A stretch of 64,000 bases of DNA from Octopus vulgaris (Eukaryota), in NCBI GenBank assembly GCA_951406725.2, contig OX597837.1, positions 10,788,001-10,852,000 on the forward strand. Direction: 5' to 3'. How positions within the stretch are numbered: position 1 is the first letter of the stretch; each line of letters starts with the position of its first letter. The notes beneath the pieces were generated by a model, which did no database searches, had not been told where the DNA came from, and was given only the letters and a program-made list of their open reading frames with translations. The translations under genes and the position numbers were made by a program. Shown here piece after piece: positions 1 to 62,069 of this stretch.

Positions 1-58
1 TTAACTGCTTTGTTTTCGTACTTCGTGTTGTTTACACAGTTGGTGACGTCCTGTACCC

Positions 59-63
59 ATATA

Positions 64-125
<62 letters not shown>

Positions 126-166
126 TATATGTGTATATATATATATATATGTATGTATACACACAT

Positions 167-203
<37 letters not shown>

Positions 204-249
204 ATATATACATACATACATACATAATATATACATAATATATACATAC

Positions 250-297
<48 letters not shown>

Positions 298-480
298 GTA
301 TGTATGTATGTATGTATATATTATTTATAGTATGTATGCATGTATGTATGTATGTATGTATGTATGTATGTATGTATGTATGTATGTATGTATGTATGTA
401 TGTATGTATGTGTGTATGTATGAATATACACATCTCATACTTATAGAAACGCATACATACACACACACATACATATACAC
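59..480. repeat. Compound microsatellite (TA)n/(CA)n/(TACA)n/(TATG)n
   Basis: Read directly; source of the Y/I/C/V/M-rich spurious ORFs. Confidence 0.97.
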
Positions 481-889
481 GAACACAAGTCACAGTACCG
501 TCATAGCCTTTTATTCATTATAAGCAGGATTTCTTTAATAATGTAGTCTGAAATAAGTTGTTTCAAAAAGACGAGATAGTCACGGTCAGAATCGCTTTTG
601 GTCATCATAGGTCGCCGACTGAACAATAGCTAAACCGCAGTCGAAGCAACTACTCGGAATTGAATACTACAATACGACTAAATTTTTAAAAATGATCAGC
701 AAGGGAAACAACTCTTTATGTACTGAATGTCGCTGAAAAATACGCCTTTGCAATATTCTTGATGGGCGAAATGCTTAGCGATATTTTTCATGCCGTTACG
801 ATAATATGGGGAATCAGTTGATCAACTGCTTACAAGACAAATGAGAAACGAAAAATACCGACAGCACATGCACGAGCAACCGTTTTATT

Positions 890-1206
890 TATTTATTTAT
901 GCGCCCTTTTCAAGCCTGGCCAGGCTCATGGCCCGGTTTCCCGGGTTTTGTGGCGCATGTATTCCCCCCAGCTGGACGGGACGCCAGTTCATTGCAGCGT
1001 TACTCAAGAAACAGGAAGAGAGAGTGATAGAAAGTTGGGGCGAAAGAGTACAACAGGGGTTGCCACCACCCTCTGCCGGAGCCTCATGGAGCTTATAGGT
1101 GTTTTCGCTCAATAAACACCCACAACGCCCGGTCTGAGAATCGAAACCGCGATCCTCCGACCGCGAGTCCGCTGCCCTAACCACTGGGCCATTGCACCCC
1201 CCACAC
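890..1206 (-). mobile_element. tRNA-derived SINE, family C (other copies about 10540-10840, 21880-22170, 60280-60552, all minus)
   Basis: Minus-strand head with Pol III A box TGGCCCAGTGG and B box GGTTTCGATTC; (TAAA)n tail; head and body recur four times. Confidence 0.85.
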
Positions 1207-1871
1207 AAGCAACCGTTATACCCGCATATTTTCTATTGGACAATCACAGGTGTACAACAAGTGTGATTGGCAAATGAGTGTGTAGCCGCTGCGTGGGTTT
1301 TTAAGGCCAACTACAAAAAAAGGATGAAAGCAAACGAAAAATTGAAAAATCTTAAAATTCTAAACCTTATCTGTTTCAAGCCACCCTGTTTTCACGATAC
1401 TTCAGCATCCCTTAGGGGATCGCGGACCCCACTTTGAGAATCACTGCTTTAAATCTTACGAAGGTCTTGCAGATTTTTATAATCCCAGATACAGTGACCA
1501 TTTGTAACGTATGTATGAAGGACTGGCGTTCTTTCTCCAAGATCCTAACTTCAGCCATACTTTGCTCCAGACGGGTTTGCATGTGTATATGTATGTGTGT
1601 ATGCTATGCATGTGTTGGGGTTTTGCCCCACCAATGCTGGGCAACCAGTGTTGGTTTGTTTACGTTCCTGTAACTTAACGGTTTGACAAAAGTTACCGAT
1701 AGAATGAGTACTGGGCTTATGAAAAATAAGTACTGTGATCGATTTGTTCGACTAAATCCGTCAATGCGGTGCCCCAGCATGGCCGCAGTCCAATGACTAA
1801 AATAAAATATAAAAATGACTAAAGTTATCTCCCCTTAACTGGAAGTATCAATTCTTTCTACTTCGTCCATC

Positions 1872-3020
1872 TCTGTCTGTCTATCTACCTGTCTGTCTGT
1901 CTGTCTATCTGTCTGACTGTCTATCTATCTGTCTGTCTGTCTGTCTATCTATCTGTCTGTCTGACTCTCTGTCTGTCTAACTGTCTATCTATCTATCTAT
2001 CCGTGTGTCTGTCTGTCTATCTATCTGGCTGTCTCTCTCTCTCTCTCTATCTATCTATCTATTTGTCTGTCTGCATGTCTCTCTCTCTCTCTCTCTTTAT
2101 CTATCTATTTGTCTGTCTGTCTAACTATCTGTCTGTCTGCCTGTCTCTCTATCTACCGGCGTTTTTCTCCCTCAATTTAATATATTACCTGAATCTCTCC
2201 CTGTCTCCCTAAAAGTGGTGATGGTGGTTCGTGGAGGCATTGAATCTGTATCACCTCCTCTTTCTTTCTGTCTCTCTATCTTTCGCTCTTCTATCTCCCT
2301 CTTTCCCTCTCTCTATTTCTTATCTTTCTTTCTTTCTGCTTCTTTCTTTCAATCTTAATACTCTTCCTCGTCATTTTCTCTCTCTCTCTCTCTTCGTCTT
2401 TCTGTATCTATCCTCCTCTACTTATTCCTCGTCTCTCCTCCTCCTCCTCTCTCTCTCTCTGCGTCTTAATGTTTCCCTCTGCATATCTTTCTATCTCTCT
2501 TTTTGTTTTCTCTTTTTCCTCGTTCTATCTTCTCCTCACCCCACCTCTCTCTCTTTCTCCCTCTCTGACATCCAGACGCGCGCGCAAACCCACACCTGCA
2601 TCCATACACATACACACTTTCCTCTTGCCGTCTATCTCCCCCCTCTCCTCTCGTTCAATTCTATCTATCTATCTTTTATCATCCCTCCCTCTCTCTCTCT
2701 CAGTTACTATCTATTTACACCTATCTATTTACATCTATTTACATCTGCCCTACTCACATTTGATGTATCTATCTCTTCCTCCCTCCCTTTATCCATCTGT
2801 ACATCTTCCTCACTTCTCACTTCCTCTCTCTATATCTATATTCCTTTCTCTTACCCTCTCTATCTCTTTCCCTTACTCTGTCTCTCTATTTATCTCCCTT
2901 CCTGACTCTCCTATTGTCATTCACTTCTTTTCGCTTTCCCTTCTCTCCCCCTCTCTCTGTATCTCCCTACCTGTCTATCATCATATTCCTCAACTCTCTA
3001 CCTCTCTTCTTTCACTCTAT
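1872..3020. repeat. (CTGT)/(CTAT) microsatellite and long CT-rich polypyrimidine tract
   Basis: Read directly. Confidence 0.9.
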
Positions 3021-3329
3021 CCCATTGGGTCGATAAATTAAGTACCAGTTACGCACTGGGGTCGATGTAATCGACTTAATCCATTTGTCTGTCCTTGTTT
3101 ATCCCTTCTGTGTTTAGCCCCTTGTGGATAGTAAAGAAATAGAAATAGGTATTTCGTCTGTCTTTACATTCTGAGTTCAAATTCCGCAGAGGTCGACATT
3201 GCCTTTCATCCTTTCGGGGTCAATAAATTAGGTACCAGTTTCGTATTGAGGTCGATTTAACCGACTGGCCTCCTCACTCCCCCCAAATTTCAGGCCTTGT
3301 GCCTAGAGCAGAAAAAATATTACAAACTC

Positions 3330-3785
3330 CATCACTACACATCTACTACTATTACTATCCTTACTACTACTACTACTACTACTACTACTATTCTTTCTAC
3401 TACTACTACTACTACTATTCTTACTACTACTACTACTACAGCTAGTTATAGAAGTAGTAATAGTAGTAATAGTTGTGGTCGTCGTCGCCGTTATCATCAT
3501 CATCATAGTCGTAACCCACACTACCACATTACCAACAACACCACTACGTATCACCACCACCATCGCTATCTCTACTTCGACTACTACCACTACTACCGCT
3601 AGGAATAGCGGTAGTCATCGTCGTCGTCGTCGTCATCATCACAGCCGTAACCCTCTCTATAATATTACTACTACCAACACCCCTACAAAAATCACAACCA
3701 CCACCGCCACCATCACTACCACTATAACCCCCTCCATCTCTACAACTACTACTACTAGCACTACTACTACAGCTAGTAATAGTAT
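3330..3785. repeat. Mixed trinucleotide low-complexity tract (ACT/CAT/CGT/ACC) with internal duplication
   Basis: Read directly; about 3440-3600 is repeated at about 3600-3785. Confidence 0.9.
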
Positions 3786-3884
3786 CTATTTTCACCATCT
3801 GCCATACTCACATTTTATGCATTTATCTCTTTCTTCCTCCCTTTTTCCATCTGTACAACTTCTTCCATTTCTCGTTTCCTCCGT

Positions 3885-4290
3885 CTACATCTTTTTTTTC
3901 TCTTACTCTTTCTCGCTCTTTCTCTTACCCTCCCTCTGTTTTTCTCTCACCCTCTCTCGCTTTCTCTTACTCTCTCTCTTTATCTTACCCTCTCTGTCTT
4001 TCTCTTACCCTCTCTCGCTTTCTCTTACCCTCTGTCTCTTTCTCTTACCTTCTCTCTCGCTTTCTTTTACCCTCTATCTCTTTCTCTTTTTCTCTCTCTC
4101 TTTCTCTTACCCTCCCTGTCTTTCTCTTACCCTCTATCTTTTTCTCTTACGCTTCCTCTCTTTCTCTAACCCCCTCTCTTTCTTTCTTTTACCCTCTGTC
4201 TTTTTCTCTTACCATCCCTCTCTTTCTCTAACCCTCTCTATTTTTCTCTTACCGTCCCTGTCTTTCTCTTACTTTGTCTTTCTCTCTACG
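3885..4290. repeat. Polypyrimidine minisatellite, unit about 16-20 bp (CTCTTTCTCTTACCCT)
   Basis: About 20 degenerate tandem units. Confidence 0.9.
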
Positions 4291-4359
4291 CTCGTCGTCG
4301 TAGTCGTGGTCGTGGGGATCGCCGTCATCGCAGTCGTACCTCAGTCCCACAGTGTCTGT

Positions 4360-4436
4360 CTATTATAAACTACAAACTACCCACAATCCCTCATTCCTAC
4401 ATTGTGTCTTTAGAGAAGATTGACAAGGCGCCATTA
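4360..4436 (+). promoter_or_regulatory. Candidate promoter with ZNF143/Staf-type site and YY1-like motif
   Basis: ACTACAAACTACCCACAATCCC at about 4370-4391 matches the ACTACA + SBS (YYWCCCRNMATSCMY) arrangement; GCGCCATT near 4428 is YY1-like; the unique sequence from here to about 5.8 kb retains many CpGs. Confidence 0.55.
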
Positions 4437-4517
4437 ATGCTCCTGTATTCTACACAAAAAACACAACAAATATCTCGCTTCGTCTCGCCTGCTTTTAGTT
4501 TCCAACCCAAAAATACT
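4400..4517 (+). other. Candidate distal first exon (5' end approximate)
   Basis: Follows the promoter motifs; ends at ACT|GTAAGC donor (GT 4518); ATG 4437 gives 27 codons in phase 0 with the 61465 exon. Confidence 0.45.
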
Positions 4518-5699
4518 GTAAGCATTCGTTTTAGTATCATTACTATCATTGTTACGATCTATTTTTCAAAAAAATATAATCCGAAACACTCTGAATGTCA
4601 ATTCGGGTTTTTTATGTTTTTTGGTGATTTCATTAATGTGTGCGTGTGTGTGTATCTGTATAAAATATTTCAGAAATATCCTTTTCTTATGTATATTCTT
4701 TTATCGTCATTCCTTAACATCTACCTCTGTCTTTATGTATGTATGTGTGATTAAATACCTTGCTGTTTCTTGTATATTTGATTTCTAGTGAAGGGGTGGC
4801 TTAAATGCTGGTTAGATTAAGAGTCGTTTGATCGGTATCTTTGCACCTCTTAATCGTATCGATCTCATAAAGTACCATTCAGTTTTAAAATATCCATATA
4901 TATATATATATATACATACATACACGGTTATTTATGTATGACGACGATGATGATGAAATTCTTTGTTATTTCTTGTATATTATATAATTCTAGTAGCATA
5001 ATCGAATACTACAAGACGAAGGGTCCCTTGATCGGGATGTTTTACCCTTTTTTAATATCGATCCGATAAGGGCGAAATAAAAAAAAAAAAGTTATGAGGT
5101 ACTTGAACTAGAATTCTGCTCAGATAAAGGTATACCATTGAGGTTTTGATTTGAAGTAAAATGAAGTGAAATAACTTTCTTTTCTGGGAACACTGAAACT
5201 CGAAGTAATATATAAAAGCTATAGTTAACAGCTTGTAAAATCTTAGATTAAGAAACCAAAAAAATATCCTTTGAATATAAAAAAAGTTGAAGGTTGTCAT
5301 GGGACACACGTCATTAAAATAAAGTATTTTTTGGGGAAGGTTTTAATATCATAAAATCCACCGTGGCCTCTTTTGCTCAAATGTGTGTGTGTCTGTTAAA
5401 AACCCTGTTATGGGTGGGTTTGTTCGAAATCAATATTAACCCTATTGAGAATCGATCGTTCTCATCACCCCTTTACTTCTCTTGTAATCGTTTCCGGTTT
5501 TGGGTATAATGTCGATCATATTGGCAAAGTATCGGGTACACGCGTACCAGTGAAATATTGAGCGTTGGTGTAATCGATTTATGCACGTCAATAGTGCTCC
5601 ACCCGATTTAAAATTAAGAAGGAAAAGCATTAATGAATTTTTTATCTTGTGCTTATAGAATTATATATATATATATATATATACACATATATATATATA

Positions 5700-6249
5700 T
5701 TCTTGAGGTAGTTCGAATCCCGGTCAAATATCGATTTTTGCCCCTCTTGAATCATTTAATCGTTTCCGAGATTCGATAGAATAAAATGTACCAGTGAAAT
5801 ACTGGGGGGGGGGGGGGGTCATTTATATTTGGGTTTCTTCTTCTTCACTTCCAAAAGAAAAAGAAAAGTACCAGGAATATGTCTTTAGACTTGTGACCAT
5901 CTTATGAAAAAATATTTTTTTTTATGAAATCGGTTCAAACCCCGGTCAAAGATCGGTTTTTGGTTTCTCGTCATTTCCATGGGGTTTCGATAAGAATAAA
6001 AAACAATATCAGTCATTTGCTGGGTTCTTATATAAAACCAAGTACCTTCCTATTCTTTCCCTTCCAAAACACACACACACACATACATATATGTGTGTGT
6101 GTAGATGTGTATGTGGCCCCGGCCATTCAAATCTAGGTCAAAGATCAATCTTTCGCTTCATCATTTCCAAGGGGTTTCAATAAGAATTTTAAAAAATATA
6201 CCGGTCATTTACTGAGGTTTTACCTTCCTATCCTTTCCCTTCCAACACG

Positions 6250-14769: not shown

Positions 14770-15030
14770 GTACATGTGTGTATGTATATACATACTTATG
14801 TTTATGTACATGTATGGATATACTTATGTATATATATGTACATGTATGTATATGCACATATATATACACACATATATATATGTACATGTATGTATGTGCA
14901 CACATATATATATACACATATATATGTACATGTATGTATATGCACATTATATATATGTATATATATATCTATGTACATGTATGTATATGCACATTATATG
15001 TATATATGTACATGTATGAATGTATGTATA
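14715..15030. repeat. TA/TG/CA compound micro-/minisatellite
   Basis: Read directly. Confidence 0.93.
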
Positions 15031-15954
15031 GCCAAATCCTGTTTTATGAAATATTAATTCCCCTACAGAAGTGAAATATCACCAGTATGCCAGAATTTCA
15101 ATTTTGATGTAGAAAATGGCATTTGCTTCAATATTTTTTTGTCCATTTTCGCTCCGATAACAAAAAATTATTTAATAAATAATGAGTATATAATGTGTTT
15201 TTATAAATAAAAGTCATCAAGTGATAACTTCAGATCAATAGCACTTGTTGTACGGATTACATTGCATTCTCGTCACTTAACCCGGATCGAGCAGACGTAT
15301 TTGATTGAAAGCGCTCCGGTGATGGCCATCCTGTCGTTTTGTATATCAGGAACTACGGTATTTAATGTGTACTTGTTTTATTTTTTAAAAGCTATATTTA
15401 AGAGAGATGTTGTTGCTATTTCTGGCGTGTCAAACAACCGTGCAGACACCACTTCGTTTTAGGTTGCAAATTCAGACTGCATCCTAAGATCATGTGTGTA
15501 TGTAAGGATATATATGTGTATATATGTATACACACTTTTATTTATTTCAGTCATTTGACTGCGGCCATGCTGGAGCACTGCCTTTAGTCGAACAAATTGA
15601 CCCCAGGTCTTATTCTTTGTAAGCCTTGTACTTATTCTATAGGTTTCTTTTGCCGAATCGCTAAGTTACGGGGACGTAAACACACCAGCATCGGTTGTCA
15701 AGCGATGGTGGGGGTCAAACACAGACACACAAACACATATATATATATATACGACGGGCTTCTTTCAGTTTCCTTCTACCAATTTCATTCACAAGGCTTT
15801 GGTCGGCCCGAGGCTATAGTAGAAGACACTTGCCCAAGGTGCCACGCTGTGGGACTTAGCCCTGGACCATGTGATTAGGAAGCAAGCTACTTAACACACA
15901 GCCACTCCTGACGAAGGCAGGTGTATTACTTTGACGTTCGGGAAAAAATGGAAA

Positions 15955-15990
15955 AGCCTGGGGTTTCGAGCCTACGCTCTTCGTCAGAAA
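15955..15990 (-). ncRNA. Degenerate minimal hammerhead motif (cleavage triplet lost)
   Basis: Minus strand UUU-CUGACGA-A-GAGC-GUAG-GCUC-GAAA-CCCC; core and stem II intact, no NUH. Confidence 0.55.
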
Positions 15991-16486
15991 GGGCTGATAG
16001 GAAAAAAGTGGAAAGAGAACGGGGTGAGGATGTGTAGGGATTAACGGTTCTACATAATGAAATGACCATATATAGATAGATAGATAGATGTGTGTGTGTA
16101 TATACACACAGTCATACATTCCTGCTTTGATGTCTAAGCGAGGAGAAAAGTACGCAATATATGGCGCAGAGTTTATTCGTTCGAAAATTACCCCCTTTTT
16201 TTTTACCCCTTTCGACACTTGAAGAATCGCACACGACGAAGAACTCTCGAGCTGCGAAGAGCGTATTCCACAGAAGCCACTTAGCAAAAAAATCGCGGAC
16301 GAGGTTGTGAAGAATATTCCGTCCTTATATGATCGCAACAAACGGTTGCCACTGTGGTGTTGATACCGGATCTCCGTTGCCAACCTCTAGTTTATTTACT
16401 CTCTGCATATGTATCAATATAATGTGTGTATGTGTATATATTGTAACTGAAGGTGGTGGATAGCTGGTCTTATATTGCGCCTATAT

Positions 16487-16520
<34 letters not shown>

Positions 16521-17999
16521 GTTTGTATGTGTGTGTATGCATACACGCACACAGTTACGTCTGTGGCCCAATCCCTCTTGTTTGTAAAAACAACCCGGAT
16601 ATCCTAAATCTGGCGCAGGCCCCTTTTTCAAGACGCGAGCCGCAAGCGACATGGCTCGGTACTAGGGGACCTGCACTGCTAAAAAACAATCGGCGGCGGT
16701 AAAGAATACGTACACTACCCGTTTTAGGCCCTAACAAAAACCCTAACCCTAAAACACCGGGTGTACGTATTTTTTTACTTTTGCCAAAAATTCAAGGTAA
16801 AATTTTGCCGCGGGTCGCAGTTTGCCCATGTCTGTCATCAAAGATAGACAGGACAGGTGTGTGTAATCCCATGTTAGTCTGATCGACCAGGTACCAGTAA
16901 TCAAAGGCGTTGTCACTATGACAATACAAATATCTTATCTTTTGAGACTCTTTCGTTTTGCTAACGGAAGACTATAATTTGGAGTAGATTTAGTTGCTAT
17001 TTCTAGCAGGTCGTGCGACAGCAGTAGAAGTTCCCGTCACGGTTGCCTATTGAAGTGTACTAAACTATTTCTCTTCCCTCTTTAAAACGAGTTTATCAAC
17101 CATGTGCGTGATAAATTATTTTGTGGTTTTTGTCGTGTAGAGTTTGTGATAATAAGATGTTGTGTGTCGATTTATATATTAAACTATACTCAAAAATATA
17201 CCTCAACACGTATTTACTCGTGTACTAATTAAATGTTAAATCTTGGTCCTTTCATAGTTTCAGCTTTACCCCGTGTGGGTGGGTCACACCCCAGTTTTTT
17301 TTCTCTTTCCTTTTCAGTTAAAATCTAGTACAAAATAGTGCGACTTTTCCCCCAGTATATGAACTAAACCCATACACACAAACTCTAAATATTTGCGGCA
17401 TTCTCCTCCTAACTTCCGTGTTCACAAATTAAATTAAAATGAGAGTTAATTAGACTCCAATTAATACGTTGAGCAATCATTTTATTTACGCATCAATAAG
17501 ATATTAGCTATATATATTATATATATATATAGCTTATATAACCTTGTGTGTGTGTGTGTGTGTGTATGTATGATGTATGTATTATATATTTATATATATA
17601 TCCACAAATTTTTATGGATAACACCATACAAAATTCTGGTGCATCTAAATTAAGTACCATATTCATTTGAATCTAAATTTTTGCTGAACTATATATATAT
17701 ATATATATATGTTACACGCAGACTTCTGGTTAGACATTGAGAACAGACAAGGAAAGAAGTCAGGGAAGAAAACATTTTCTGAGAAGGAAGTTAGTATAAA
17801 AAACCATTGAAACGCTTCTTGGCGTTCTAAAATAAGGTGGACAGACAACCTTTATATATATTATATACACACATATTTATATATATATGTATGTATAATC
17901 TCCAGAATTCTGTGTTAGTCATCACCTGTGTTGAGGGGTAGTGAGTAAAGATAATTAATATTTCTAACCCAGTTTAGCTTCTTTTTTTTATTAATTATT

Positions 18000-18288
18000 A
18001 TAGTTCTTTCTGGTTCTCACGCGGTCGAGATAAAGCAGTCACAGAAATGGCACGAGTGCCTAAGAACTGTGTGCAGTGAAAGCCGCTTAATGTGATCGTT
18101 TTTTGTCGTTTTCCCTCTTGCTGTTGTAAACGGAGCTTCTTAGAGAGCAGTAGCAAAGAACCGAAGCTTGATAACATTATGCGGAAGCTAACAATATCCT
18201 TAACTTGTCTTAGTAGGAATCCATTTAATGTTGAGCGCTATAACATCCATGATTCTAATAAGCGGCTAATATATATATACTTTTTACT

Positions 18289-18325
<37 letters not shown>

Positions 18326-18416
18326 TTATCGTATATATATGTGTGTGTTACTGGGAAAATAGATTCGAATAAACAAACATTATTGCATATATAACAAATC
18401 AAACAGCCATAATTGA

Positions 18417-18474
<58 letters not shown>

Positions 18475-18853
18475 GTGTATGTATATACATCTAGGTTTGG
18501 TGTTAAAGGAACATAGAAATCCAAATATTGGTATATATTAATTTATTTTTTTTATTATTAATCAGCGATGTCTGGAAGAGCCGAGGGTTACGTCCAATTG
18601 GACTTACGAAGCTGGTTTCAAATTATGGTGCCGTGAGCGGGGGAGGGTCGCATTTTATACAGACCGGTTAAAATAATAATTCTCTGGTTTCTTTGCACGG
18701 AACTCTCTCTCCTTGAACCACTCTAATTCTACCGATGATAATAATAAATAATATATATATATGTATGTATAATGTTCAAATGTCTACTCGTATCTCCCTC
18801 CTCCCCCGGCTTTGTCATCTGTCTCCTACTCCCCGTCCCCTTTACTGATGAAA
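18000..18853 (+). other. Candidate alternative promoter/first exon ending ATG AAA|GTAAGT
   Basis: CpG-retaining unique sequence from about 18010; consensus GTAAGT donor at 18854 directly after ATG AAA (18848-18853), in frame with the 61465 exon. Confidence 0.45.
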
Positions 18854-19171
18854 GTAAGTTCGCTTTTTTTTTTCTTTTTATATATTAGCTGCCCCTCCTC
18901 CCTTTGTAAGTTGCTTTTCCTTGCTGCTGTGACCCTAATTTTCACTTTAGGTCAATATAGATAGATAGGTAATCGCGTATTCGTTCCTCTGTTCGTCTCT
19001 CTCTCTCTCGTGTGTGTGTGTGTGTTCAATGGCAAACATCGAATAATGGAATCAGGGAATCCTTTTAATATCCTATTCTTTGATATTTATGATCATGCAT
19101 ACTTTATGGATATTTGTGGATTTTTTCATATAATTGGAGGGGTCCGCGTGAAAAACCTTCACAAGTGTCTG

Positions 19172-19197
19172 TATATACACACACATATATATGTGTG

Positions 19198-19228
<31 letters not shown>

Positions 19229-19254
19229 TGTGTGTATATATATATATATATATA

Positions 19255-19289
<35 letters not shown>

Positions 19290-19354
19290 GTATATGTGTG
19301 TATATATATATATATATGTATATGTGTGTATATATATATGTCTGTGTGTATATA

Positions 19355-19410
<56 letters not shown>

Positions 19411-19535
19411 GTGTGTGTGTGTGTATGTATATATATATGTGTGTGTGTGTATATATATGTGTGTGTGTATATATATGTGTGTGTGTATATGTATGTGTGT
19501 GTGTGTGTATATATGTGTGTGTGTGTGTGTATATA

Positions 19536-19566
<31 letters not shown>

Positions 19567-19576
19567 GTGTGTGTGT
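19172..19576. repeat. (TG)n(TA)n compound microsatellite
   Basis: Read directly. Confidence 0.95.
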
Positions 19577-19699
19577 TTTTATCTATTCGAGGTCTATGAT
19601 TCATTCCATTATTATCGACTAGAAGTTTCTTTCAAGCGGCAAATAAGAGGAGAGAGAGAGAGAGAGGGAGGGAGAGAGGGAGATATGCGTGTGTGTAGA

Positions 19700-20595
19700 T
19701 AATTAAAAGGTGTCTCTCAGAAATCGAAGCGGAAACTATATCTGGTCGGTGCGTGAGTTGAGAGATATATTGGTAGCGGGTGGGGTGGTGAACGGGTAGT
19801 TTTTGAGCTGACGAACGGGGTGCTTGCTTATTCCTACGGCGGCTGCTGTGTAAGGAGGACCAGCGGGTGGTTGTTTAGGCTTTCTCAATCCTTAATGTAT
19901 TTAGCGATAGATTAAAAAAAAAAAAAGGTTGGCGGAGATGTGGGGGCTTTGATCAATTGTGATTAGTAGTCGAAAACTCCCTCTATTCGGTGTTTTTAGA
20001 GTGAGTATTGTTAAGAGTCTGCGTTCGATATCGGCCGGACTAAGAGCTTGGCCTTACAATTACTACTACTACTACTACCGTGGTCATATTTCTACTCCTA
20101 CTACCACTATTACTATTACTCCCCCTCCCTCGACTATCCCCTTCACTGTTATCACGAGCATCCCCTTCTGTGTTATCACGAGCCGACAATGGAGCTTGTA
20201 TGTGGTCGTCGCTCCTCCTAGAAATTCTAACCAAAATCTCCCTTTTATCACGCTCCACAGTCGAAGGAAAGACGAACGATGTCGTTCGCTGGCAGGACTG
20301 TCACGGCAGGAAAGCCTTTGGTCATCGTAAGGTGTGCTTTTACGGTGCTGCCGACCTTGGTGATAAAGCATCGTCGTAGTCGCCGTTGGCGGCCTCATCG
20401 CTTATTGTTAGTAGTACTACTAAGATCATCATCATCGTCGTCATCATCTTTGCTAGTACTACTACTACCATCGCCCCTGCTGTTGCTGTTATTGTCATCA
20501 ATATTGTCTATGCTACTACTAATACTACTACTACTACTACTCTCATCCATCATCATCATCATCGTCGTCATCATTCCAGTAGCAGAAGCCTGCTT
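19700..20595 (+). other. Candidate alternative promoter/first exon (CpG-rich, triplet-repeat rich)
   Basis: High CpG density, SINE-free from about 16.9 to 20.7 kb; donors GTGAGT at 20001 and GTAAGT at 20596. Confidence 0.35.
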
Positions 20596-21458
20596 GTAAG
20601 TGGTGGATGGAGGGAGGTATGCGGGGAAACACTTGTATATCTTAGAATAATCACGAGATCTATCTATATACGGTGATATATATATAGATAGATAGATGGG
20701 TATCGTTGAGGAGCGGGTTTGTGGTAAGTAGATAGGTGGGTTTATGGGTGGATGGGTCGAGGGTTGTGTGTGACATTTTTTAAAATTCTTTTATTTCTGT
20801 CATTTGACTGCGGCCATGCTGGAACACCGCTTTTAGTCGAACAAAATCGACCCCTCCAGGACTTATTCTTTGTAAGCCTAGAACTCATTCTATCGGTTTA
20901 TTTTTGCCGAACTGCTAATTTGCGTGGACGTAAACACACCAACGTCGGTTGTTAAGCGATGCTGGAAGGACGGGCTTCTTTCAGTTTCCGTCTACCAAAT
21001 CCACTCGCAAGGCTATAGTAGGAGACACTTGCCCAAGGTACCACGCTGTTGGACTGAACCTAGAACCATTATGTTGGTAAGCAAGCCACTTACCACATAG
21101 CCACTCCTACGCCTCTGTGGCATTAAAAAATTTTTTTTATTTAACCTTAGGTCAACCCTTGCCAAACAGACAGATATGATCAAAAGATATTCTACTGATG
21201 ATCATTTCAATTTTATATTTATTTATTTATTAAGCAACATCCATTTTCTTATTCTTTTACTTGTTTCAGTCATTTGACTACAGCCATGCTGGAGCACCGC
21301 CTAAAAGGGTTTCTAGTCGACGATGTCGACCCCCAGGACTTATTCTTTGTAAGCCCTAGTATTTATTCTATTGAATTCTCTTTGGCCGAACCGCTGAGTT
21401 ACGGTGACTTAAACACACCAGCATCGGTTGTCAAGCGATGGCAGAGTGACAAAAACAA

Positions 21459-37885: not shown

Positions 37886-38365
37886 TAAGTTAAGTTAAGT
37901 TAATTTTTTGGCTCACTGCTAGGCTGTGAAGTTAAGTTAAGTTAATTTTTTGACTCAAAAAGCAAAAAGCAAGGCCATGTAGGGGGACATGGAGTTATGT
38001 ACAGGGTGGTGTTCATGCAAAGAGTTCAGGCCATTTCTGGTCAAGAGAGAGACTTTGAACCGAGCGGTCATCGGCATCTTCACTATCTCGTCCGGCAGTT
38101 TATTCCACGGATCCGCAACCCAGACGGAGAAAGCCCCTCTCCTTCGATTGAGATGAAATTGTCGCAGATAGCTTTTCGGAGTGACCCCGCAGCCGACGCT
38201 CTGGAGCAGGAGTGAAGAACAGCTCCTTCGAGAGGTTACACTTTCCGCTTATGATGTTGTGAGCGAGAATGAGATCACCACAGTTCTATCGGTCTCTGCA
38301 ATGCAACTGATCCAACTACTAGATCGTCATTTTGATAGCAGACTACCATTGCAGGCTGTATCGTG
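37886..38365 (-). mobile_element. CR1-clade LINE 3' end
   Basis: Reverse complement of the 58.6-59.0 kb copy; (AACTT)n tail. Confidence 0.85.
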
Positions 38366-57180: not shown

Positions 57181-57618
57181 CGGCAGAAACGTTAGCACGC
57201 CGGGCGAAATGCTTAGCGGTATTTCGTCTGCCGTTACGTTGTGAGTTCAAATTCCGCCTAGTTCGACTTTGCCTTTCATCCTTTCGGAGTCGATAAATTA
57301 AGTACCAGTTACACACTGGGGTCAATGTAATCGACTTAATACCTATGTCTGTCCTTGTTTGTCCCCTCTGTGTTTAGCTCCTTGTTGGTAATAAAGAAAT
57401 AGGTATTTGGCTTGATTGGGGTCTCTGAAGCCTTTCATCTGTCTACAGCTAGTTTTCTTAAAACACCACCAGGTTACAGATTGTAGTATCTTGGTAAATG
57501 CCCTTCTCCAGATCAGCTAAAGCCCCCACACACACAACACAGACTTCAAAATTATGTTAACAATATTTAGCATTTGTAAAGAATAAAAAGTTTCAAATGG
57601 TACAACAATGGGCTATAT

Positions 57619-58347
57619 CTCTTTCTCTTTTACTTGTTTCAGTCATTTGACTGCAGCCATGCTGGAGCACCACCTTTAATCGAGCAACGCAGCCCCAGGA
57701 CTTATTCTTTTGTAAGCCCAGTACTTATTCTATCGGTCTCTTTTGCCGAACTGCTAAGTAACGGGGAGATAAACACACCAGCATCGGTTGTCAAGCAATG
57801 CTAGGGGGACAAACACACTCACGCATGAGTTTTGCTAGTCCGAACCAGCCAGGATCCCTGGTCTGGTGGTACGTAAAAAAGCACTATCCGAATCGTGGCC
57901 GATGCCAGCGCCGCCTCAACTGGCTTCCGTGCCGGTGGCACGTAAAATACACCAATCCGACCGTGGCCGTTGCCAGCCTCGCCTGGCACCTGTGCAGGTG
58001 GCACATAAAAAGCACCCACTACACTCACAGAGTGGTTGGCGTTAGGAAGGGCATCCAGCTGTAGAAACATTGCCAGATAAGACTGGAGCCTGGTGCAGCC
58101 TTCTGGCTTCCCAGATCCCCGGTCGAACCGTCCAAACCATGCTAGCATGGAGAACGGACGTTAAACGATGATGATGATGATGATGATACATATATACGAC
58201 GGGCTTCTTTCAGTTTCCGTCTACCAAATCCACTCACAAGGCTTTGGTCGGCCTGAGGCTATAGTAAAAGACACTTGCCCGAAGGTGCCACGCAGTGGGA
58301 CTGGACGGAACCATGTGGCTGGTAAACAATCTAATTACCACACAGCC
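57619..58347 (-). mobile_element. SINE A with a nested family B element (about 57822-58187, plus)
   Basis: SINE A halves flank the B copy; CTATAT duplicated at the SINE borders. Confidence 0.88.
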
Positions 58348-58527
58348 TATATACCTGTTGTAATTTAGTCAGTCATAGTCTGATGATATTTTGGAATAAA
58401 ATTCCTTCTTCAGATATTCCGATTATAGCAGTGACTCCATCTAAGAATATCTGAAGAAGGAATTTTATTCCGAAATATCATATCAGACTATGGACGACTA
58501 AATTACAACAGGTATATAGCCCATTGT
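58347..58527. repeat. Long inverted repeat carrying two opposed hammerhead copies (probable Penelope-like inverted terminal-repeat remnant)
   Basis: Left arm 58347-58419 (distal part at 57605-57618, split off by a SINE) is the reverse complement of right arm 58445-58527; 25-nt spacer. Confidence 0.85.
58447..58483 (+). ncRNA. Minimal type I hammerhead ribozyme motif, core intact (Penelope-like type)
   Basis: AUAU-CUGAAGA-A-GGAAU-UUU-AUUCC-GAAA-UAUC-AUAU: core boxes, 5-bp stem II, palindromic AUAU stem III, AUC triplet (predicted cut after 58479), 4-bp stem I. Confidence 0.75.
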
Positions 58528-58589
58528 CTATATTATAGTGCATGGTAGGGAAGTAAGCTTCTTAACTTTGTCTTTCGTAAGCTTTCTTA

Positions 58590-59012
58590 ACATTTGTCTT
58601 ATGAAGAAAGGCTGACGATGCTCAACCTTTATTCTCTAGAAAAATGACGATGCCGTGGTGATCTCATTCTTGCTCACATCATAAACGGAAAGTGTAACCT
58701 CTCGAAAGAGCTGTTCTTCACTCCTGCTCCAGAACGTCGGCTGCGGGGTCACTCCGCAAAGCTCTATCTGCGACGTATTTCATCTCAATCGAAGGAGAGG
58801 GGCTTTCTCCGTCCGGATTTCGGATCCGTGGAATAAGCTGCCGGACAAGATAGTGAAGATGCCAACAACCGCTCGGTTCAAAGTCTCCCTTGACCACAAA
58901 TGGCCTGAACTCTTTGCATGAACACTATCCTGTACATAACTCCATGGCCTTGCTTTTTGCTTTTTGAGCCAAAAAATTAGCTTAACTTAACTTCACTGCC
59001 TAGCAGTGAGCC
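58590..59012 (+). mobile_element. CR1-clade LINE 3' end
   Basis: LYSLEK*RCRGDLILAH...LRGHSAKL...WNKLPDKIVKMPTTARFKVSLDHKW with frameshifts; (AACTT)n tail. Confidence 0.88.
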
Positions 59013-61464: not shown

Positions 61465-62069
61465 TGGCAAAGGGTTTTTGAGATGTCGGACCCAAATGAC
61501 CAACTTCATCCGAACATACCACCACCACCACCTCCACCACAATATATGAACACAGCGGTAGCTGCCGTTACTGCTGCTGGTCTTGTGGGCCCTCCACCAC
61601 CAGCTGCCATCGTTGGCACCGTGGGCACTTTCAACAACTATCGTCCTGCGGTCGCAGTCAACTCGGTCGCTGTGAACGCCGTCGGTGTGGTCAGTGGTGT
61701 CGGCGGTGCGGTCATCGCAACAGGTGGCTACAGGACCGACTACAATGACGCCTACCGGGGCGACTACGGCGCTGCCACCAGCTGCCCGCCGCCTGTCATC
61801 CCTGTCGGCCTCGTGGCGGGCAGCAACAACCTTGTCACCGCCGCCGCCAGCACTGCCATCACTGCGCCGACGTCGGGGAACACCGTCAGTCCTCCGCCGC
61901 CGCCGCCACCTGCTGTCGCCAACCCTGCCACCACCACTAGCACGAGCGGCAACAGTAACGCTGGTTACGACACCGGCTACTGCGAGAGTGACTACCGAGA
62001 CGACTATAACTACGAGGACAGACATGGCTACCGAAAGGACTCGGAGTTCCGGGATAGAGACAGGGACAG
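61465..62069 (+). CDS. Coding exon (ATG 61483; the 18 nt upstream are in frame, WQRVFE) of a low-complexity Pro/Ala/Val-rich, DY/RD-rich protein; probable splicing-related RNA-binding protein N-terminus
   Basis: Long pyrimidine tract plus CTAG acceptor (AG 61463-61464); GC- and CpG-rich open frame MSDPNDQLHPNIPPPPPPP...ESDYRDDYNYEDRHGYRKDSEFRDRDRD in an AT-rich background; donor AG|GTAAGG at 62070 (phase 2) joins in frame to the next exon. Confidence 0.88.

Follow-up and report, generated by a model that had tools for sequence, protein, structure and literature searches.

Does a hammerhead ribozyme motif that lies in the same sense as a spliced gene of Octopus vulgaris, and that is paired with its own inverted and broken copy, serve that gene as a conditional self-cleaving element, or is it the remnant of a mobile element? 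We addressed this question in a 64,000-nt stretch of contig OX597837.1 (referred to here as the window, with coordinates counted from its first nucleotide), for which a sequence-only reading had proposed conditional self-cleavage of an intron, with neutral decay of a Penelope-like element (PLE) insertion as the simpler alternative. The data, including CpG decay and ordinary conservation, favour neutral decay: the locus is very probably a decayed EN-bearing Penelope-like insertion, in which two 5'-truncated, hammerhead-bearing ends stand head to head and the ribozyme, predicted to be locked in the resulting hairpin, is likely inactive.

The minimal + strand hammerhead is present as had been claimed, with the core and stems I and II read from the sequence, and the upstream inverted copy with a broken core was likewise seen; the two motifs lie approximately 40 nt apart:

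58447-58483, + strand: minimal type I hammerhead motif with an intact core (sequence, pattern match, listed pairs); predicted cut after C17 at 58479.
58383-58417, - strand: broken hammerhead copy, in which G12 is replaced by A at 58392 (G12A, a CpG transition) and the 3' strand of stem I has lost 2 nt.

In the + strand motif, core positions C3, G12, and C17 correspond to 58451, 58472, and 58479; stem I (58447-58450/58480-58483) has 4 bp, stem II (58459-58463/58467-58471) has 5 bp and a 3-nt loop, one additional A is found between A9 and G10.1, before stem II, and helix III is only a 4-nt palindrome. The motif thus shows the features given for the minimal hammerheads of metazoan PLEs in the available portions of PMC4209133 (Cervera & De la Pena 2014), i.e., the core boxes, the extra base between positions 9 and 10.1, a G10.1-C11.1 pair, a palindromic minimal helix III, and a helix I of 4-5 bp. 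The same portions, in which octopus is not mentioned, describe dual minimal hammerheads located close together on opposite strands, 100-700 bp apart, and relate most such motifs to truncated PLEs; the two motifs in the window are closer than that, and helix II is shorter than the 7-8 bp described for Schistosoma families. The proposed check with Rfam hammerhead models returned no hammerhead match, either at the gathering threshold across the 64-kb window (0 matches) or among the 21 matches found at E ≤ 10 in 58000-59000; these weak matches were to miRNA hairpin models, scored far below the gathering scores, and mirror only the palindrome. A loose core pattern was not found above chance in the window (13 matches versus 6.4 ± 4.2 in shuffles), and its 13 matches sit at four places, the three besides 58447-58483 all being on the minus strand. 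What makes the motif credible is its stems and its position within an element, rather than the loose pattern or Rfam.

The inverted arms, 58347-58419 and 58445-58519, are separated by 25 nt and had been described as arms of about 75 nt with a 25-nt spacer. The arms and the gap measure as described, but the supposed spacer is family sequence belonging to a longer right arm, as seen in an alignment to a reference arm of the same repeat family (L025):

58419-58546, + strand: right arm, a 5'-truncated piece of a PLE 3' repeat (pLTR; reference arm positions 22-149), with the 3' end also lost.
58420-58444, + strand: hairpin loop, additional 5' sequence of the right arm and no independent spacer (reference positions 23-47).
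58347-58419, - strand: inner part of the left arm, a second pLTR piece that is truncated further and lies inverted, head to head with the first (reference positions 48-122).
57573-57618, - strand: outer part of the left arm, displaced by a later insertion, ending at the tail-less family end (reference position 181), with an internal deletion.
57619-58346, - strand: inserted block that interrupts the left arm, consisting of an abundant SINE-like repeat into which a second repeat is nested (window self-BLAST, flanks).
58601-58922, + strand: broken 3' fragment of another repeat, adjoining the cut-off right arm (translation; second copy at 37909-38281).

The right arm is 94.5% identical to the reference arm over 128 nt, which places the window copy in the family. 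Both arms join at 58419 with a 1-nt overlap and differ from each other at four positions plus an indel. The 728-bp insertion in the left arm is flanked by a 6-bp duplication (57613-57618 and 58347-58352), and its SINE-like label follows from its size and copy number. The right arm ends at 58546, with its tailed end gone, beside the LINE-like fragment, which presumably represents the end of an ORF2 of the CR1/L2 type; because this end is lost and the tail-less end alone is kept, no target-site duplication is readable for the window copy. An inverted pair of SINE-like repeats straddles the element (57625-57825/59456-59656, 94%; 58186-58347/59272-59434, 91%), and its duplexes would exceed the hammerhead hairpin in length.

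Longer copies of the family in the same genome identify the parent element. An RT-thumb query gave 825 candidates, and in 13 of the 15 loci retrieved the window's arm was present and adjoined RT/EN coding sequence. Upstream of the arm, fragments matching RVT_1 fell short of the curated cut-off (E 1.2e-6, just under it, and 7.8e-5), and a match to GIY-YIG (E 7.8e-6) passed it; in one locus, L219, both domains lie in a single open frame, 0.4 kb from the arm. The order typical of EN+ PLEs, with RT followed by a C-terminal GIY-YIG upstream of the pLTR, holds for the family, while the window copy is non-coding, and EN+ PLE features were read by eye in the translations of L057, L219, L221, L224, and L227. 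A CX2-5CxxC motif in the RT-EN linker is whole in L225, and its last cysteine is changed in the other copies read; by the criteria in the available portions of PMC8557442 (Craig et al. 2021), this sequence motif suggests Neptune or Nematis. An element ORF ending directly before the hammerhead was considered and ruled out, as the ORF ends approximately 0.3 kb upstream. Next to one PLE copy, an open frame (L226:2768-3331) was found that may encode a mariner-type transposase.

When the 2.8-Gb genome of the species was queried with 58340-58560, 1611 candidates were obtained; scoring 40 of these yielded 80 matches, most of which share the two-armed form of the window. The full arm is approximately 200 nt long. 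A family sample was then picked by an exact 30-mer outside the core, which avoids core-based selection (483 matches), and 89 loci were analysed, each with 1.5 kb on either side (from 100 of the matches, 90 were retrieved, two being second arms of retrieved loci and the last eight left out, and duplicate L149 was dropped); this sample favours young copies (exact 30-mer; contigs C1-C10). The 89 loci comprise 33 head-to-head pairs, each with an inverted 5'-truncated copy as in the window, 54 single arms, and two split arms; two single arms located 1.9 kb apart (L141 and L142) may be one large inverted insertion entered as two singles. One tailed and one tail-less end were found in 23/33 pairs, with the tailed arm end extending approximately 40 nt further out than its partner, which corresponds to the Penelope "tail", and one pair (1/33) was tailed at both ends; TA or TAA repeats adjoin 39/56 tailed ends. 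The core is intact in 57/99 arms spanning the motif; by core, the 33 pairs include eight with both copies intact, seven with one intact, seven with both broken, and 11 truncated into the motif. The inner junction varies from locus to locus among the sampled pairs, suggesting that the palindrome was made anew at each insertion and was not itself the mobile unit. Neither the window nor the 89 loci showed head-to-tail arrays of a 170-400 nt unit, and two "tandem" calls were single arms split in two. With RT/EN sequence upstream of the same arm, head-to-head pairs, and a one-sided tail, the Penelope origin named in the sequence-only reading is supported.

Arms within a pair differ by 8.6%, compared to 10.2% for arms of other pairs (33 pairs, L125-L214), and at subfamily-diagnostic sites the arms of a pair agree at 17/23 and 22/30, with about half expected; the two arms of some head-to-head pairs may thus derive from different templates, or may have undergone conversion afterwards. 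Two loci showed more complex structures. In L045:200-1560 (G000:C5:9751855-9755067), inverted and rearranged RT thumb and 3' pieces, joined by internal deletions, precede the direct arm, representing a more complex insertion than the usual pair. L054 and L059, which are located on different contigs, share approximately 2.2 kb around the arm at 87%, beyond the element itself; this segment is a candidate duplication, or a candidate capture within a larger repeat.

This insertion pattern has been described before. Head-to-head is the most frequent PLE arrangement, with a one-sided tail, in the available portions of PMC3846280 (Arkhipova et al. 2013), and a Penelope "tail" at one end appears in that paper as well as in PMC8557442 and PMC11167929 (Frangieh et al. 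2024). The octopus family resembles the inverted-pLTR EN+ PLE insertions of these three sources, as far as their available portions go, in joining an inverted 5'-truncated copy head to head, in carrying a tail of 30-40 nt at one end, in its probable (TA)n targets, and in an RT followed by a C-terminal GIY-YIG with two cysteines inside the motif; unlike them, the window copy has no coding sequence, tailed end, or readable target duplication. The non-LTR retrozymes of metazoans, as presented in the accessible parts of PMC7229834 and bioRxiv 10.64898/2026.07.22.740005, are likewise short, AT-rich, non-coding repeats that are related to PLE pLTRs and carry a type I hammerhead; however, they form head-to-tail arrays with mostly canonical motifs, whereas the octopus copies are minimal, single or inverted, and continuous with a PLE ORF. 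A search of titles and abstracts on hammerhead ribozymes and octopus found no description of this family, while the supplements of PMC4209133 and PMC8557442 may list cephalopod families.

In line with such insertions, the RT and GIY-YIG nuclease of the parent element would have written both arms in one target-primed event; methyl-CpG deamination would afterwards have struck G12 of the left arm, and slippage would have removed 2 nt. G12 follows C11.1, forming a CpG, and the G12A change is CpG decay. Exact 34-mer counts across the genome gave 183 intact copies, 37 with G12A, and 34 with the mirror C-to-T change, C11.1U; the mirror change, which would leave a G-U pair, is as common as the core-destroying one. 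Among the sampled arms, G12 was changed in 19/113 and C11.1 in 16/112, and the two positions of a CpG outside the core were changed at similar rates (16/79 and 13/81). Because G12 sits in a CpG, a pair with one intact and one broken core arises by decay alone in approximately one third of whole pairs. The second defect of the left copy, the loss of 2 nt directly 3' of the cleavage site, shortens stem I; this deletion recurs in at least 18/99 arms (reference arm positions 82-85) and is likely due to slippage in a short direct repeat.

Better preservation of the sense copy than of its relatives, which a role in the host would lead one to look for, was not found in this within-genome comparison. 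The right arm of the window differs from the family majority at 3/97 scored positions (3.1%; family mean 5.3%), and 20% of 100 arms were equally close or closer to the majority. Non-CpG core positions were changed in 37/1055 cases (3.5%) versus 433/9890 (4.4%) elsewhere in the sampled arms. As judged from these sequences, the sense arm appears mildly on the conserved side, which is not striking and gives no evidence of selection.

The geometry supports the proposal that the ribozyme is locked in a long hairpin. The stretch folds as one hairpin of -103.6 kcal/mol (z -15.4; 0/200 shuffles equal it), in which 72/73 nt of the left arm are paired on the + strand. If stems I and II are forced to form around an open core, the penalty is 3.8 kcal/mol for the isolated right arm, in which stem I is predicted to be populated at <1%; adding the left arm raises it to 44.6 kcal/mol. 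In a cofold of two copies, the dimer helix was not formed; nearest-neighbour folding is a method that cannot settle dimer activity. No second sense copy that might serve as a dimer partner was found within the 64-kb window. According to the portions consulted of PMC4209133, minimal PLE hammerheads show undetectable cleavage in vitro as monomers and low cleavage as dimers, and those of PMC11167929 report that an Anolis PLE hammerhead was cleaved in vitro only with the protein of the element. The prediction for any read-through transcript is a ribozyme trapped in the hairpin and likely inactive. Whichever strand is transcribed, the polymerase would reach the antisense arm first, and this arm would capture the nascent motif; head-to-head geometry would cause such masking in any copy. 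The hammerhead likely served RNA processing of the parent element, as a dimer or with the help of a protein, rather than the host gene.

Whether the motif could affect a host transcript also depends on the neighbouring gene, for which the following features were annotated:

61465-62069, + strand: first coding exon seen of the neighbouring RRM-RRM-OCRE gene (ATG at 61483; GT..AG junction).
15001-21000, no strand assigned: CpG-rich, repeat-poor stretch, a candidate promoter and first non-coding exon, inferred from a CpG o/e of 0.77-1.04 in unique sequence.

The exon ending at 62069 is joined to the next exon across a GT..AG intron in contigs of 4/4 presumed-RNA runs, and the downstream exons match RRM_1 twice and OCRE (the domain scan covered 88 of approximately 190 open stretches), an order which we take to be the RBM5/RBM10 arrangement. 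There is a strong acceptor ahead of 61465; in two contigs the first placed base is preceded by exactly 82 letters, which would put their start at 61465, and in two further contigs by 84 and 112 more letters. The CpG o/e ratio comes close to 1 between 15 and 21 kb and is reduced in most of the 1-kb bins between 21 and 61 kb, and candidate splice donors in 15001-21000 are located at approximately 18853 and 20596. The acceptor, contig starts, and CpG profile together suggest that the hammerhead site likely lies within a first intron of approximately 41 kb. A second CpG-rich region is located at 1-6000 of the window; its strand skews are strong, and open frames of low complexity occur at 2000-4800. 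Read depth and A>G differences over the element come from contigs that combine many family copies and are uninformative for the window copy.

Octopus is an animal with very high ADAR activity, and the asymmetry between the two copies could be read as an editing-gated switch, in which the antisense arm keeps a sense hammerhead closed within intron 1 of an RBM5/10-like splicing-factor gene until the duplex is opened by hyper-editing or a helicase, whereupon intron cleavage changes the output of the gene. An intact core in the sense of the neighbouring spliced gene and a 72-bp duplex that would be an ADAR-type substrate are consistent with this reading, as are the conserved intronic hammerheads of amniotes (PMC6155905) and the protein-assisted cleavage of a PLE hammerhead in vitro (PMC11167929), as described in the available portions of these papers. 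However, the same asymmetry was found in 7/22 pairs with both motifs whole, which makes it a common CpG accident, and G12A is no commoner than its mirror change. The barrier imposed by the left arm, the sparse population of stem I even in its absence, the lack of a dimer partner in the window, and the absence of cleavage by single minimal PLE hammerheads in vitro (PMC4209133, available portions) also speak against cleavage. The left arm is itself interrupted by an insertion, and any editing of core adenosines would probably damage the motif itself. Nor does the hairpin stand out as a dsRNA substrate, except for its short loop: 74 other, longer inverted pairs (≥100 bp at ≥80% identity) lie in 20600-61465, two of them straddling the hammerhead site. 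The amniote hammerheads (e.g., RECK) share with the window motif a type I structure in gene sense and a probably intronic position, but the available portions of PMC6155905 describe them as few-copy and conserved across lineages, whereas the window motif is one of at least 183 intact copies in the genome, does not fold stably as a monomer, and is covered by its own antisense arm. Conditional intron self-cleavage as suggested in the sequence-only reading is thus unsupported, and we consider a co-opted switch very unlikely.

A palindrome that moves as a unit, i.e., a MITE or fold-back DNA element or a non-autonomous retrozyme, would account for the two-armed form at many loci and for its short, non-coding nature, yet 54/89 loci are one-armed, the inner junction varies by locus, the ends are asymmetric with a tail on one side, the arms run on into RT/EN sequence in longer copies, and the arrays of a retrozyme were not seen; this possibility is already largely refuted and has little probability left. 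Long near-perfect palindromes can be artefacts, and the inverted copy could have been produced by assembly or by library fold-back. Against this, an indel and four mismatched positions distinguish the two arms, an insertion with a target duplication lies in the left one, and the two-armed form recurs at dozens of loci with different junctions, making an artefact extremely improbable. A decayed Penelope-like insertion, by comparison, is the reading that we prefer.

What is new here is one more copy of an apparently Neptune/Nematis-type Penelope family, inserted in an already described pattern. Co-option, if true, would represent ribozyme cleavage gated by RNA editing and would be of real interest. 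Caution is needed in this and similar cases, as any head-to-head PLE stub will show, on each of its strands, a sense hammerhead that its own antisense masks.
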